A DNA stretch of 40,885 bases, taken from the UHGV virus genome UHGV-0869933; one strand, written 5' to 3'. Of this stretch, positions 7,780 to 20,356 are shown one piece after another. A program made the translations under genes and the position numbers. This stretch comes from a virus. The notes under the pieces are model-generated. The model worked only from the letters and a program-made list of their open reading frames with translations. It was not told the origin of the DNA and ran no database searches. Numbering within the stretch: position 1 is the stretch's first letter; each line of letters starts with the position of its first letter.

Positions 7780-8829
7780 TCAAACGATTAAATCCTGAAC
7801 TTCCCTGACTGTCTGCTCAAAACGTCCGGTCTCCAGTTCAACGCCAATCGCACGACGCCCGAGCGCCAGTGCAGCTTTTACCGTTGAACCTGAGCCCATA
7901 AAAAAATCTGCAACCAGGTCACCCGGACGACTGCTTGCGCTGATTATCTGCTGCAGCATTTCTGCCGGTTTTTCGCACGGATGTTTCCCGGGATAGAACT
8001 GCACCGGTTTATGTGTCCACACATCCGTGTACGGCACCTGCGCCGTCACACCAAAATACCGCCGCAGATGCTTATATTCACTCTGCAGCTCCACATACTG
8101 CCGGTTCAGTGACGTATACGTATCCACCAGCTGGTGGTGGGGCTTTTCCAGTTCACCGCGCTGATGTTTCTCTTCTGCCACCCGGGCAAACAGCGACTGT
8201 AATTTCAGATAATCGCTTTCGTTCGGTAGCTGCCACTGACTGGCACTGAACCAGTGCGACACCATGTTTTTCTTTCCTGTGGCATCTGCAATCTGTTTTG
8301 CCGTTATCCCCAGGGCCGCGCGCGCATCACGAAAGTAAGAAATCAGCGGGGCCATCACATGCTGTTTCAGTGCACTGCCCTTCGCCGCATACCCGGCATC
8401 TTTCGGACGATACGGCCCCTGATAATGTTCCGCGAACAGAATGCGCTCTGTGGCGGGGAAATACGCCCGCAGGCTTTCCTTGTTGCATCCGTTCCAGCGT
8501 CCGGACGGCTTCGCCCAGATAATATGGTTCAGCACACTGAAGCGTTCACGCATCATGATTTCGATATCAGATGCCAGGCGATGACCACAGAACAGGTAAA
8601 GACTTCCGACAGGTTTCAGCACCCGCCAGAACTGCGCCAGACACTGGTCCAGCCACTTCAGGTAATCATCGTCGCCCTTCCACTGGTTATCCCATCCCTC
8701 AGTCTTCACTTTAAAGTACGGCGGGTCCGTGACTATCAGGTCAACAGAATTTTCGGGTAACGACCGGATAAATTCCAGGCAGTCGGCGTTGATTAACTCA
8801 CAACTGGATATTTTTACAGTATTAAGCAT
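7780..8829 (-). CDS. Orphan DNA methyltransferase (beta-class amino-methyltransferase, N6-adenine or N4-cytosine)
   Basis: 349 aa; DPPY (motif IV) near the N-terminus and FFMGSGST (motif I) near the C-terminus; no restriction endonuclease partner nearby; sits between Q and the tRNAs as in Stx2-type phages. Confidence 0.8.
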   Translation of the reverse strand: MLNTVKISSCELINADCLEFIRSLPENSVDLIVTDPPYFKVKTEGWDNQWKGDDDYLKWLDQCLAQFWRVLKPVGSLYLFCGHRLASDIEIMMRERFSVLNHIIWAKPSGRWNGCNKESLRAYFPATERILFAEHYQGPYRPKDAGYAAKGSALKQHVMAPLISYFRDARAALGITAKQIADATGKKNMVSHWFSASQWQLPNESDYLKLQSLFARVAEEKHQRGELEKPHHQLVDTYTSLNRQYVELQSEYKHLRRYFGVTAQVPYTDVWTHKPVQFYPGKHPCEKPAEMLQQIISASSRPGDLVADFFMGSGSTVKAALALGRRAIGVELETGRFEQTVREVQDLIV

Positions 8830-11935: not shown

Positions 11936-12013
11936 CGTCTTTCTCTGCTGGCGCAGCAGGTGCCAGTTGTTCAGGCTGACGTGCGAATTGTAAACCTGAA
12001 TGCCAAGAAAAAA

Positions 12014-12037
12014 CAAAACCCGCCGAAGCGGGTTTTG
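12014..12037 (-). terminator. Terminator hairpin AAAACCCGC-CGAA-GCGGGTTTT (copy 1)
   Basis: Perfect 9-bp stem with T-run on the minus strand; near-identical hairpin at 13362-13381. Confidence 0.55.
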
Positions 12038-12050
12038 TCAGTACTGAATA

Positions 12051-12200
12051 TCAAGCTGCGTGCTTGCCACTACAACTGCAAAGTGGGATCGGGAAAGGCT
12101 TCCCTTTTTTCGCGTGGCGCATTACACCATCTACACACACAGAGTAGCGAAAAATGATCTCACATGGACAGCCACATTTGCGACAGGTACCCATTGCCAT
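12051..12200 (-). CDS. Possible small Cys-rich protein (about 49 aa)
   Basis: MAMGTCRKCGCPCEIIFRYSVCVDGVMRHAKKGKPFPIPLCSCSGKHAA; weak RBS; could be spurious. Confidence 0.25.
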   Translation of the reverse strand: MAMGTCRKCGCPCEIIFRYSVCVDGVMRHAKKGKPFPIPLCSCSGKHAA

Positions 12201-12367
12201 GATTTCGTTTTCCCTGCTCACCTGTGAATCCACACAGGTTGCACTTTGTTGGGAGAACCACTACACTTCGCTTGTCTACAAAAAGTGTTGTGATTGGATT
12301 ATCTCCATACACTACGGAATGTGTTAGCGCACTTTCCGTCCCTAAAAGCCCTGTTAGCGCAGGGCTT

Positions 12368-12844
12368 TTACATATAAAAATCGAACGACATCTGTTGTGT
12401 TCTCACGCCAATTGTTTCCAGTACGATATCCGCAAATGTATCTGCCTGCCATTCTGCATCCTCAATACGAGTAGGTTCTTTAACTGAAAAGTGTAAAACT
12501 GCTTTGTGTCCAAGAAGCAAATGACCTAGCTCGTGGAAGATAACAGCAAGTGCATGCTCTTCCCCAAGGCAAGCATTCACATATATTTTATTGGGAACCG
12601 TAATTGTTAGAGAAGCGGGGTCACAATGTCCGATAGTTAGATCATACGTCAGAGCCTCCCACTCTTTGTCGGTCCTGACGTCAAGAGTAACCCCATAAAT
12701 TGACAGGCTTTCAAAGAACATATCATAACGCTTTCTTTTGCGCTTTGAGGCTGTAAGACCAATAGCATTACAGAAGTTTATAGCTCTGTAGGCTATTTCT
12801 TCTTCTTGCATCGGTGACACCCTGTTACCTCTCATTTGATACAT
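12368..12844 (-). CDS. ImmA/IrrE-family (COG2856-like) zinc metallopeptidase
   Basis: HEXXH in FHELGHLLLGH; about 150 aa; 2 nt downstream of the XRE-HTH gene; alternative start codons in the first 12 codons. Confidence 0.65.
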   Translation of the reverse strand: MYQMRGNRVSPMQEEEIAYRAINFCNAIGLTASKRKRKRYDMFFESLSIYGVTLDVRTDKEWEALTYDLTIGHCDPASLTITVPNKIYVNACLGEEHALAVIFHELGHLLLGHKAVLHFSVKEPTRIEDAEWQADTFADIVLETIGVRTQQMSFDFYM

Positions 12845-12846
12845 AA

Positions 12847-13206
12847 TTACCCCTCATTGTTATTAATCTTTTGCAATAAATCTGCAAAACTCTTTAGCTG
12901 TTCCGGCGTAAACTGCGACTTAGCGAATCCCGCTACAAGCATTTTCTGTTGCTGAGACAAACCGTTTACTGGAACTGAGTCATTCGCAACTGCCGCTAAC
13001 TCCTGTAACCCTTCAATTTCTACACCTTTGGCCTTGAAGTAAGAATCAATCTTCTTAACCCACTTCAGAGGTATTTTTTTGCTACCAGTTTCTAAACCGC
13101 TAAGAAACGCTGGCGTAGTGCCCAGTTCTTGAGACATAGTCAGAAGAGTACTGTCAGTATCGATCCTCGCTTTTCTAACGGCCTTACCGAATTCAGTGAG
13201 TGCCAT
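12847..13206 (-). CDS. XRE-family helix-turn-helix transcriptional regulator
   Basis: 119 aa; N-terminal HTH (TLLTMSQELGTTPAFLSGLETG); own promoter-like region with CTTGC-N5-GCAAG inverted repeat upstream. Confidence 0.65.
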   Translation of the reverse strand: MALTEFGKAVRKARIDTDSTLLTMSQELGTTPAFLSGLETGSKKIPLKWVKKIDSYFKAKGVEIEGLQELAAVANDSVPVNGLSQQQKMLVAGFAKSQFTPEQLKSFADLLQKINNNEG

Positions 13207-13361
13207 GATTTTATCCTCAATTTGTTGATTTAGCAGACTTGCCTAACGCAAGCCTGATGGGCGCTTAAATTCTAATTCCTAAAATTTACCATATACGAAA
13301 GCAAAGTAAACCTTTTTAGTTAAAAAATCTCCTTTAAGGGAATTTTTTTCACAAAAAGAAC

Positions 13362-13381
13362 AAAACCCGCCGAAGCGGGTT
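13362..13381 (-). terminator. Terminator hairpin AACCCGC-CGAA-GCGGGTT (copy 2), downstream of hok
   Basis: Near-identical to the hairpin at 12014-12037; T-rich tail on the minus strand. Confidence 0.5.
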
Positions 13382-13449
13382 AAGTGCGGGTGCGTTGAGG
13401 ATGCCTGACACATCAGAGGTGGCGAGGGATTTCTCCCCCGCCAGGTCTC

Positions 13450-13605
13450 TTACTCCTCAGGTTCGTAAGCTGTGAAGACAGCGACCTCCGTCTGGCCGGT
13501 TCGGATTCGTACCTCGCAGAGGTCTTTCCTCGTTACCAGTGCCGTCACAATGACGGTTAAACAGATGACGATCAGGGCGATTAGCATCGCCTTTTGCTGC
13601 TTCAT
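13450..13605 (-). CDS. hokD: Hok/Gef-family type I toxin (HokD/RelF-like)
   Basis: MKQQKAMLIALIVICLTVIVTALVTRKDLCEVRIRTGQTEVAVFTAYEPEE matches the Qin HokD (RelF) sequence as I recall it; the track ORF carries a mok-like upstream extension. Confidence 0.85.
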   Translation of the reverse strand: MKQQKAMLIALIVICLTVIVTALVTRKDLCEVRIRTGQTEVAVFTAYEPEE

Positions 13606-13886
13606 AGCCTGCTTCTCCTTGCCTTTCGGCACGTAAGAGGCTAACCTACGTGTGTAGAGCATAGATATGGCCTCAGATTAATGTTAAGCGTCTTGCCGGA
13701 CGCGTAATGTTAACTGGGGCTTTTCTCTATCTGCCTTTTGGTGTTCATGCCTGAGACAGATAGCCTCAAGCACCCGCTGCAATTCTACTTAACTCTCCTT
13801 TTCCCGCAAACCGTTTTTATCCCCAGCGGCAAATCGAATACACCACCAGCGCCACCGCCATCGCAATTCCTACCGTTGTTAATGCT

Positions 13887-19148: not shown

Positions 19149-19574
19149 TTAGTGCATCACCACAGCATTCCCTGCCGGGCCGCCGCGATTCATCTGGTCA
19201 TACAAAACAACCGCTGACGCAACAAAATCATCGACATCCTTCACCAGCCGATCCCTCCGTTCGACGATCTCACGGTAATATTCAGAACTGTGGCTGCGCA
19301 TACGGGCCACCAGCAAAGGCGGCATCGCCTTTTCGATCGCCGGTAACAGAGCCTGCATTTTTTCAACAGCATCAGGGGTGTCTTTCTCTACCCAGCGGAA
19401 AATTTTCTGGGTATTGCGAGCCAGGGCTTCCGGATGGCTGTCGTCATACAGTTCTGGGAACGTCATACCCAACTCAAAATAAGCCTGGGTTATTCCAGCT
19501 GCTGGAACTTTTTCGCCATCAGGACGCGCCCAGGCATTCATCGCCATGCGGATGTGTTCATGCTTGATTTTCAT
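19149..19574 (-). CDS. YdaT-like protein (cII-position gene)
   Basis: 141 aa directly downstream of the Cro-like gene; size and position match the Rac YdaS/YdaT pair; assignment by context. Confidence 0.45.
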   Translation of the reverse strand: MKIKHEHIRMAMNAWARPDGEKVPAAGITQAYFELGMTFPELYDDSHPEALARNTQKIFRWVEKDTPDAVEKMQALLPAIEKAMPPLLVARMRSHSSEYYREIVERRDRLVKDVDDFVASAVVLYDQMNRGGPAGNAVVMH

Positions 19575-19839
19575 GAATCAAGCTCCTAGAAAGTGGTTGT
19601 GTTAACGTTTTGGTATCTTCCAGCTCGGGCCAAATATTCATCCAATCAAAAGGCCTTAGTTGCTGACGTGTAACTTCACCATTACTGGCTCGCTCAATAA
19701 GGACACATAACGATGCCCCTAACACTTGACCTTTACTCAATGCCTTTCTTAGATAACCGATGCTGGTACCACACTCGCATGCAAACATACGCTGTTCATC
19801 TGACGAAAGAGAATTGAGAAATATTCTTAATTCTTCCAT
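19558..19839 (-). CDS. Cro-like HTH regulator (YdaS-like)
   Basis: 93 aa with HTH (CGTSIGYLRKALSKGQ); divergently transcribed from the repressor gene across an operator-rich 100-bp region. Confidence 0.55.
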   Translation of the reverse strand: MEELRIFLNSLSSDEQRMFACECGTSIGYLRKALSKGQVLGASLCVLIERASNGEVTRQQLRPFDWMNIWPELEDTKTLTQPLSRSLIHENQA

Positions 19840-19868
19840 AGCTACTCCTTAGTAAACACAGCAAAGAA

Positions 19869-19946
19869 TACCCACAGGTAAACAAAAGTCAATACCCACA
19901 GGTTGTTTACCTTGCGGTAATCGCATCTATTATTTACCTATGGACA
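19869..19946. promoter_or_regulatory. Right operator/promoter region with three 12-bp operator-like sites
   Basis: TACCCACAGGTA (19869-19880), TACCCACAGGTT (19893-19904), TACCTATGGACA (19935-19946); a -10 TATTAT sits 6 nt before the repressor ATG, implying a leaderless repressor transcript as for lambda cI. Confidence 0.5.
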
Positions 19947-20356
19947 AATATGAATTTAGACGACAGCAACTCATCAAAATTCGTGATGAGAAATGCGATG
20001 GTAAAGCGGTTAACGTGGCCAGAAAGATCGGGCGCGAGCCTTCTTATGTATCAAGAATGTTGTACCCAGAGGGGAAAAGGGAAAAACGGATCGCTGATGA
20101 TATGGTGGAGATTATCGAAGAGTCCTTTGGGTTACCCCGGGGATGGATGGATGGTATCGTTTCATCATCAACGAACACAGCCTCCAGTTATGAAACAAGG
20201 GTTCTAACGCCACGACAACGTATTTTTTTAGATCTCTTAGACGAACTGCCAGAAAGTGAAGCGGATAAATTATTAAAAACTCTTGAAGAGAAAAAACAGT
20301 ATTACAATATGATCTACGAAGAAATCCGTAAAAAGAAAGCACAAAACGCATCATAG
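19940..20356 (+). CDS. Phage repressor (cI-position HTH protein)
   Basis: 138 aa; N-terminal HTH (VARKIGREPSYVSRML); transcribed towards the early-left genes and int; flanked on both sides by related palindromic operators. Confidence 0.65.
   Translation: MDKYEFRRQQLIKIRDEKCDGKAVNVARKIGREPSYVSRMLYPEGKREKRIADDMVEIIEESFGLPRGWMDGIVSSSTNTASSYETRVLTPRQRIFLDLLDELPESEADKLLKTLEEKKQYYNMIYEEIRKKKAQNAS

Follow-up and report, generated by a model that had tools for sequence, protein, structure and literature searches.

Pairs of genes encoding a helix-turn-helix (HTH) protein and an ImmA/IrrE-type metallopeptidase are usually read as the induction switch of their carrier or as the control unit of an adjacent defence operon. 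What is the role of such a pair when it is neither? This question is raised by a 1,347-bp cassette in the UHGV virus genome UHGV-0869933, a stretch of 40,885 nucleotides (hereafter the window) which represents a lambdoid prophage whose integration site adjoins ompW. Here the pair lies between hok, which has its own terminator, and a gene of the nin region, and it travels in a compact cassette with its own candidate output: a small gene preceded by a structured RNA leader. By analogy with known systems, we see an even chance that the cassette is an autonomous moron in which a protease-gated repressor switch of the ImmR/ImmA or CapH/CapP kind would control an RNA-gated small-protein output. The cassette is probably a switch triggered by stress. 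The HTH-peptidase pair itself is an ordinary kind of gene pair which is already annotated, its products being named ‘helix-turn-helix domain-containing protein’ and ‘ImmA/IrrE family metallo-endopeptidase’ in RefSeq. The small gene, the structured RNA, a defined candidate operator and the mobility among unrelated prophages are new.

All parts of the cassette lie on the minus strand in a single gene order: a promoter with a palindrome, the HTH gene, the peptidase gene, the RNA leader, a small open reading frame (ORF) of 49 amino acids (aa) and a terminator (Table 1). Presumably, they constitute one minus-strand transcription unit. The two larger ORFs had been proposed in a preliminary description made from the sequence alone and both were confirmed, with the TAA stop codon of the HTH gene and the ATG of the peptidase gene 2 nt apart. 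Relatives of the peptidase came from a protein search (68 clusters of 155–175 aa, found in Enterobacterales, Pasteurellaceae, Neisseria, Orbaceae and Burkholderiales), from one genome per species and from viral contigs of IMG/VR. Loci were counted where the peptidase gene is full-length, which gave 150; in 142 of them, an HTH homologue is located immediately 5′ of the peptidase gene and in the same orientation.

The small ORF, listed in the preliminary description as a possible Cys-rich frame, is on codon statistics a real protein-coding gene under selection. Homologues are found 100–250 nt downstream of the peptidase gene in 119 of the 150 loci, always on the same strand, and most of the remaining loci contain a small basic ORF in the equivalent place (for example Pseudomonas MTYTDERGTFILRWSRRLKNG..GKPFKIYIK). 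Among 35 distinct 49-codon versions, 7624, 7546 and 15801 differences fall on codon positions 1, 2 and 3, respectively, and 42% of the differing codons are synonymous in frame vs ~ 9% in the other two frames. A core (V/I)I(F/Y)R..(I/T)T.K.GK.I....GK.F.I is retained even in versions which are free of cysteines. The protein is basic, rich in cysteines and devoid of a hydrophobic stretch; its AlphaFold2 model is all-β with a mean confidence (pLDDT) of 79, and no structural neighbour of this model was found. It is almost unannotated, with two clusters in a collection of 5.8 billion proteins and about a dozen credible matches among 1.84 billion representatives. One of 50,697 deposited phage genomes holds a version of the cassette with the small ORF, where an overlapping wrong frame is annotated. 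In the preliminary description the effector of the module was ‘not obvious’; the small protein is now the best effector candidate of the cassette.

Several observations on related small genes deserve mention. In Klebsiella phage ST13-OXA48phi12.4 (MK422450, locus L001), a 62-aa ORF with a GTG start (QBQ71937.1, L001 5109–5297) is annotated across the structured RNA, in a frame which is not conserved, and the neighbouring conserved 49-aa ORF (29590–29736 of the record) is unannotated. The unit of RNA leader and small ORF is tandemly duplicated in Providencia rustigianii (L013, 6486–6634 and 6833–6981), and cassettes of the Vibrio/Alteromonas type carry two small ORFs of the family (L124, L138, L151, L155). 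Distant cassettes (L033, L048–L053, L165, L171, L172) contain a second family of small basic ORFs with the pattern V.V..Y.R.R.G..E.V..H.RS.P (for example MTCNCNCTGLKPVRVRQYDRYRNGQWEIVCTHCRSLPNK), ~ 150–480 nt downstream of the peptidase gene and sometimes alongside a member of the first family.

The peptidase gene and the small gene are separated by a conserved spacer of ~ 170 nt. It contains a structured RNA of four helices (H1–H4), which the preliminary description had missed. An alignment of 36 distinct leaders from Enterobacterales and Rheinheimera was folded with RNAalifold. In this alignment, 92% of the leader cells pair, vs 84.7 ± 0.4% in shuffled alignments and 32–50% when the partners are slid, and 23 pairs are changed on both sides where 9.9 ± 1.7 are expected; none of 500 shuffles reaches the observed value on any of five measures. 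Counted on the gene strand, G-U exceeds A-C by 48 to 6 in H3 and by 25 to 0 in H4 (73 to 6 in sum), which assigns both helices to this strand, while H1 and H2 are uninformative in this respect. A covariance model of the leader (R1) scores 153.8 bits on the window and 114–154 bits overall. The search with this model covered the window, the loci L001 and L002 and the loci from the neighbourhood and one-genome-per-species sets (92 sources, 1.04 Mb), and R1 matched only directly downstream of peptidase genes. It matches twice in P. rustigianii, once 5′ of each tandem small ORF; since both are duplicated together, the RNA goes with the small gene. Among 4,227 Rfam families, none matches positions 12200–12370 with an E value of 1 or below.

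Two other promoters within this region were considered and rejected. A promoter of the small gene inside the leader (CTAACA-18-GATAAT, 12327–12298) is not conserved in relatives. An antisense small RNA on the plus strand, transcribed from TTGCrn-17-TAnACT (−35 at 12240–12245, −10 at 12263–12268) and terminated at H1, is at odds with the G-U counts of H3 and H4, and its promoter is not called by the promoter scan.

The loops of H1 and H2 behave in an unusual way. In 30 of the 36 distinct leaders, both hairpins (12314–12369 in the window; equivalents in loci L004–L172) share a loop word with a length of 6 nt or more on stems that differ, and none of 2,000 permutations reproduces this sharing. 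Nine different words occur. Close relatives contain words which are reverse complements of each other (TTGACG/CGTCAA and TTGGCG/CGCCAA), thus the two loops flip together. Related words are present in equivalent hairpins of cassettes from Neisseria, Moraxella, Vibrio and Burkholderiales. One strand of the loop word always reads YUNR, the U-turn motif of kissing loops. No second copy or complement of the loop word was found anywhere in 17 cassettes, and no column of the protein alignments predicts the class of the word.

At the 3′ end of the leader, two alternative pairings suggest an anti-Shine-Dalgarno switch. In the minimum-energy fold of the window sequence (z = −3.66), GUUCUCCC, which forms the 3′ arm of H3, is paired with GGGAAAAC in the Shine-Dalgarno (SD) region of the small gene. 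This pairing and the outer stem of H3, which is supported by covariation and reads GGAGR:UCUCC in the consensus of the leaders, are mutually exclusive. Across loci, the duplexes between arm and SD sequence have a mean energy of −10.0 kcal/mol vs −7.4 kcal/mol for shuffled arms.

The HTH protein has its HTH part at the N-terminus and a conserved C-terminal part (QQQxMLVAGFA...). In relatives, the region upstream of its gene contains a common palindrome, TTAAC(C/T)-N5-GGTT(T/A)A, whose right half overlaps a −35-like TTTAC(T/A) or TTGA; an extended −10 element then follows. A strict form of this motif, AAC[CT]-N5-[AG]GTT or ACC-N5-GGT, has a background of 4.1% in 160-nt windows. Of 114 distinct regions upstream of related HTH genes, 87 contain it, as do 77 of the 80 regions whose HTH protein is at least 60% identical; its median position is −99 relative to the start codon. 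The preliminary description had proposed a different operator-like repeat, CTTGC-N5-GCAAG. This sequence does exist in the window (13238–13252), but it is not conserved, and the palindrome over the −35 element is the conserved candidate. At the position of CTTGC-N5-GCAAG, relatives carry inverted repeats of unrelated sequence, and in the window a G-U pair on the gene strand occurs within the extended stem. The window repeat looks like an mRNA hairpin and not like the conserved operator.

The peptidase was assigned to the ImmA/IrrE type in the preliminary description, and profile searches bear this out: the protein passes the threshold of Pfam PF06114 (Peptidase_M78) with 24.6 bits (cut-off 22, E = 2.4e-5) and matches phrog_87 ‘metallo-protease’ (E = 7e-17). 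The family is matched by all 23 aligned homologues (best E = 6.3e-7). Ten residues (H104, E105, H108, E128, E131, W132, Q133, A134, D135 and F137) are invariant in these 23 proteins down to 37% identity. They include the HEXXH zinc site, and the downstream glutamate ligand is carried by an E-x-x-A-x-x-F-A-like helix. The predicted fold is that of the catalytic domain of IrrE and CapP, with a single catalytic domain in the model. The annotated start in RefSeq/PGAP is Met12 (444 bp). Residues 1–11 (MYQMRGNRVSP, 12812–12844) are conserved to ~ 37% identity and the longer ORF begins 2 nt past the HTH stop, which makes the longer start probably the correct one.

How did the cassette reach its present place? 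The preliminary description had noted two near-identical hairpins which bracket the module. Each is part of a 27-nt direct repeat (26 of 27 positions identical, spacing 1347), and the terminator scan calls both copies intrinsic terminators on the minus strand. Phage Evi aligns to the window up to 12034 and from 13355, and the two alignments overlap on one hairpin copy, so the window carries 1,347 extra bases exactly at the hairpin. In O157 PPompW phages, the same slot between a small nin-region gene and gef/hok holds rem. Presence of the module is polymorphic precisely at the hairpin, and neither of the two outcomes that would have refuted the preliminary description, a pair fixed among the core nin genes of Qin-like phages or a peptidase unlike ImmA/IrrE, was obtained. 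The hairpin of the downstream terminator is also found 3′ of the small ORF in cassettes located elsewhere, with peptidase identities of 94, 86, 55 and 54%, and it is thus a part of the cassette. One of the two hairpins terminates hok and the other the cassette; they are not paired insertion ends, and in our reading the cassette recombined in at the hok terminator. The module is more AT-rich than its neighbours, as first described (GC content of 0.40–0.44 vs 0.50–0.57 in the flank on the ydfU side). With its own putative promoter, its own terminator, a deviating composition and a position between genes which are adjacent in relatives, the cassette fits the definition of a phage moron, and its description as self-contained cargo holds.

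The whole interval with both junctions is present in 48 of 5,426 complete Escherichia coli genomes; E. coli B19374 contains a 99.9% identical copy in the same type of prophage. Beyond this version, the cassette recurs in many Proteobacteria, in prophages which are not related to one another (lambdoid, P2-like and Mu-like) and whose hosts range from Enterobacterales to Neisseria and Burkholderiales. In the Klebsiella phage it adjoins dinI, in Enterobacteriaceae it has an SRAP gene with dinI on one side and umuDC on the other, with tail genes of lambdoid or P2 type close by, and in Mu-like prophages of Neisseria it is inserted inside the tail module, between the tail-tube and tape-measure genes. 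The repeated neighbourhood of the DNA-damage genes dinI, SRAP/YedK-like and umuDC (L004–L009, L001) may represent a shared hot-spot for cargo or a functional theme. In 91 of 127 loci, the upstream neighbour has the same direction as the cassette. A conserved divergent effector was considered on account of the hypothetical and SppA-like genes of the Klebsiella phage, and rejected: the 55 divergent neighbours of the HTH gene fall into 47 unrelated clusters, and for this reason no external effector can be tied to the cassette. In the literature collection searched, no paper mentions the accessions of the cassette proteins.

The features of the cassette are collected in Table 1. The annotation in RefSeq leaves 430 bp blank over the part with the small ORF and the RNA, which makes the cassette an example of the coding and non-coding content hidden in the blanks of reference annotation.

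Table 1 Parts of the cassette and its upstream boundary in the window
Feature	Position	Strand	Basis or remark
hok/mok terminator, at the upstream edge of the insertion	13353–13381	minus	repeat copy 13355–13381, terminator call, phage Evi junction
Palindrome TTAACTAAAAAGGTTTA over the −35, candidate operator for the HTH protein	13307–13323	minus	motif conserved in relatives
Promoter-like region: −35 TTTACT (13305–13310), extended −10 TGGTAAATT (13283–13291)	13283–13310	minus	read from sequence, arrangement shared with related loci
Stem-loop in the 5′ untranslated region, CAGGCUUGC-GUUAG-GCAAGUCUG, includes CTTGC-N5-GCAAG	13234–13256	minus	inverted repeats at the equivalent position in relatives
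Gene, 119-aa XRE-like HTH protein, putative autorepressor	12847–13206	minus	ORF; WP_001219082.1 (RefSeq)
Gene, 158-aa single-domain ImmA/IrrE (M78) zinc peptidase	12368–12844	minus	HELGH, residues 104–108; EDAEWQAD, residues 128–135
Conserved structured RNA leader, four helices, ~ 150 nt	12218–12369	minus	RNAalifold, covariation, covariance model
H1	12344–12369	minus	directly past the peptidase stop
H2	12314–12339	minus	RNAalifold
H3, outer stem GGAGA:UCUCC	~ 12298–12302 / 12252–12256	minus	RNAalifold
H3, inner stem	12283–12294 / 12257–12268	minus	RNAalifold, covarying
H4	12221–12238	minus	just 5′ of the Shine-Dalgarno sequence
Gene, 49-aa basic Cys4 (zinc-ribbon-like) protein MAMGTCRKCGCPCEIIFRYSVCVDGVMRHAKKGKPFPIPLCSCSGKHAA, candidate output	12051–12200	minus	homologues in relatives, codon statistics
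Intrinsic terminator of the cassette	12008–12039	minus	downstream repeat copy 12008–12034; 12-bp stem and T run

Some observations concern the rest of the prophage. As stated in the preliminary description, the prophage has a separate lysogeny switch (19149–20356); it is of the RacR/YdaS/YdaT type with a divergent repressor. Sok is an antisense RNA. In the window, the Rfam match to sok (RF01794, 117 bits, 13600–13775) lies on the minus strand, as does the hok/mok ORF (13450–13662), and the RF01794 model probably covers the sense-strand leader of hok/mok.

Which activity could these parts support? The systems ImmR/ImmA, DdrO/IrrE and CapH/CapP follow a common scheme, in which DNA damage leads to a cut in the C-terminal part of the repressor and to derepression (bioRxiv 10.1101/2022.04.27.489752; PMC13228613; PMC10904395). 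CapP removes the C-terminal dimerisation helix of CapH upon stimulation by single-stranded DNA (ssDNA), and ImmA cleaves ImmR (bioRxiv 10.1101/2022.04.27.489752; PMC13228613); PprI/IrrE likewise senses ssDNA (PMC10904395). Transferred to the cassette, the scheme would comprise four steps. In the lysogen, the HTH protein would bind TTAAC(C/T)-N5-GGTT(T/A)A over its own −35 element and keep the operon low. A stress signal, DNA damage or an infecting phage, would then let the peptidase cut the HTH repressor, possibly in the conserved C-terminal part, and the cleavage would derepress the operon. The RNA leader would set the level of the small protein through the competition between the GGAGR:UCUCC stem of H3 and the pairing of UCUCC with the SD sequence. 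Lastly, the small protein would act as the only plausible output of the cassette.

Several points weigh against this scheme. In Pfam, the HTH protein stays below the cut-offs (HTH_31, 15.9 bits with a cut-off of 27; HTH_3, 13.5 bits with a cut-off of 23); in PADLOC it matches HTH_VI (E 1.1e-6) and capH (E 0.0097), and its Neisseria homologue matches PF12844 (HTH_19). The consensus promoter scan does not flag the promoter region of the cassette, so the promoter is a putative one. In IrrE and CapP, a linker together with a GAF domain at the C-terminus forms the groove for ssDNA, and CapP has a cysteine-switch loop (10.1101/2022.04.27.489752; PMC13228613). The cassette peptidase, with its 158 residues, has neither linker nor GAF domain; a different activation route is needed, and sensing of ssDNA in the manner of CapP and IrrE cannot be taken for granted. 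Locus by locus, the anti-SD pairing reaches significance in only 26% of cases, and it is partly expected, as any SD sequence is complementary to CUCC. Read-through past H1 is assumed solely because this hairpin, with too few T’s past its stem, is not called a terminator. Finally, profile and fold searches detected no homology or fold match for the small protein, whose label as effector is an argument by elimination.

A further-reaching version of the same idea is less likely than not. It holds that the cassette represents a new three-part prophage system for defence or host manipulation, in which a protease-gated repressor would be combined with a new class of riboregulator gating basic β/zinc-ribbon effectors of 35–60 aa. 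The riboregulator would consist of two hairpins with a common, fast-changing and sometimes inverted loop word, followed by the anti-Shine-Dalgarno switch.

Four other explanations have to be weighed against the protease-gated switch. The first one, the main rival although we regard it as unlikely, is a toxin-antitoxin or abortive-infection module, a split relative of RosmerTA and Xre-COG2856. The small basic protein or the peptidase would be toxic, the HTH protein and the peptidase would neutralise or hold the toxin until infection, and the lysogen population would be protected from other phages. RosmerTA combines a Zn-peptidase antitoxin with a toxin of unknown function (bioRxiv 10.1101/2022.05.11.491447), and PD-lambda-2, which includes an Xre-peptidase fusion, defends against lambda-vir (PMC9519451). 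In PADLOC, the cassette peptidase has weak matches to models of the RmrA antitoxin (E 0.001–0.015) and to capP, but no PADLOC match of the cassette reaches a confident score. Furthermore, one homologue (P0009) is named ‘toxin’ by one source, the cassette is prophage cargo next to the addiction module hok/sok, and a tight translational gating of the small gene would suit a dangerous product. The anatomy fits less well: the HTH and peptidase parts are separate proteins encoded by two ORFs, nothing upstream of them within the cassette could be the toxin gene, and it is downstream, past the RNA leader, that the small gene is found. In profile and structure searches the small protein is unlike any known toxin family, and the tandem duplication of RNA and small ORF would be unusual for a toxin without a matching dosage of antitoxin.

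The second explanation, an improbable one, treats the small gene as an SOS gene and the HTH-peptidase pair as a separate neighbour. H4 (CTGT-N8-ACAG) would be a LexA box, and the leader region would carry a regulatory RNA as in tisB/istR-1, symE/symR and dinQ/agrB. Scored with a LexA matrix built from 20 E. coli SOS boxes (known sites 6.2–27.1 bits), H4 reaches 10–18 bits across relatives and 11.6 bits in the window, the third best value in 40.9 kb. A second CTGT-N8-ACAG directly follows H4 in some relatives, the genes dinI, umuDC and SRAP are neighbours in other genomes, and the opposite strand offers the conserved TTGCrn-17-TAnACT. However, no promoter overlapping H4 is found in the scan. 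The excess of G-U in H4 on the gene strand, together with compensatory CCGU/ACGG and other stem changes and a conserved loop, is what an RNA hairpin predicts; H3, which lies across the supposed antisense promoter, shows the same excess. In addition, the box is missing from the Neisseria and Rheinheimera cassettes, which nonetheless keep the overall architecture, the small protein is basic and soluble and not a membrane peptide, and most loci show linkage of its gene to the pair. The best LexA-box-like site of the window, AACTGGATATTTTTACAGTA (8802–8821, 23.9 bits), is located elsewhere, at the 5′ end of a DNA-methyltransferase gene downstream of the Q antiterminator gene.

According to the third explanation, an option named in the preliminary description which we judge quite improbable, the peptidase would serve in anti-repression or cross-induction by cleaving another repressor: the main repressor of the prophage, that of a co-resident prophage or a CapH-like defence regulator. 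HTH repressors are known targets of ImmA-type peptidases (bioRxiv 10.1101/2022.04.27.489752), many types of prophage carry the cassette, and the window prophage has its own switch. The peptidase gene is nevertheless paired and translationally coupled with its own HTH gene in nearly all loci, this partner and the operator motif remain constant despite unrelated main repressors, and no data point to a foreign substrate.

Lastly, it is very improbable that the cassette is a non-functional leftover from the immunity region of another element, carried passively: its rarity among E. coli and phage genomes and the lack of a recognisable effector domain would fit, but all its parts are intact, the genes, operator, RNA helices and terminator are kept together from Enterobacterales to Neisseria, Moraxella, Pseudomonas and Burkholderiales, the compensatory changes in the RNA and the purifying selection on the small ORF contradict it, and none of the neighbourhoods examined has an integrase or replication gene within the conserved unit, an IS-type transposase (rve) gene flanking the cassette in a single Neisseria locus (L012).

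If the protease-gated switch is the true reading, the cassette would be a portable ‘stress in, small effector out’ device which lambdoid, P2-like and Mu-like prophages have acquired independently. It would offer an entry point to the effects of small phage proteins on the host, to the activation of ImmA peptidases without a GAF domain, and to a new translational riboregulator.

Comparison with known systems places the cassette more precisely. It resembles phage morons in having its own promoter and terminator, in its insertion between adjacent genes, in its deviating composition and in a slot that is variable (empty, or occupied by rem or the cassette). There is no difference in kind here; the term describes the mode of carriage and not the function. 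With tisB/istR-1, symE/symR and dinQ/agrB, the cassette shares a small gene past a long structured 5′ region, a CTGT-N8-ACAG sequence and damage-themed neighbours. In contrast to these loci, its product is a basic zinc-ribbon protein and not a membrane peptide, its helices form on the sense strand, and no promoter overlaps the LexA-like element.

RosmerTA (RmrT/RmrA) and PD-lambda-2 have in common with the cassette the combination of HTH and M78 chemistry, the small partner, the carriage on a mobile element and the weak matches to RmrA in PADLOC. Theirs is an HTH-peptidase fusion with an upstream toxin gene, whereas the cassette encodes two proteins and has the small gene downstream, past a structured leader. 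CapH/CapP and DdrO/IrrE(PprI) also combine an XRE-type repressor, with a short helical C-terminal part, and an M78 peptidase, and they provide the precedent for derepression triggered by damage or ssDNA. They differ in the peptidase, which in the cassette is the short form described above. Furthermore, unlike CapH/CapP, the cassette has no adjacent defence operon, its neighbours are not conserved and the regulated cargo would lie only inside the cassette.

A close parallel in organisation is offered by ImmR/ImmA of the Bacillus element ICEBs1 and of phage phi105, in which an HTH gene is co-transcribed with a gene for a short single-domain HEXXH peptidase of PF06114 next to it, on a mobile element and under an autoregulated promoter (predicted for the cassette). 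The similarity in sequence is remote, and cleavage of the cassette repressor is proposed by analogy. Unlike ImmR/ImmA, the cassette pair does not control the excision or lytic genes of its carrier, which has its own switch; it is part of a movable cargo which includes a third, small gene and an RNA leader.

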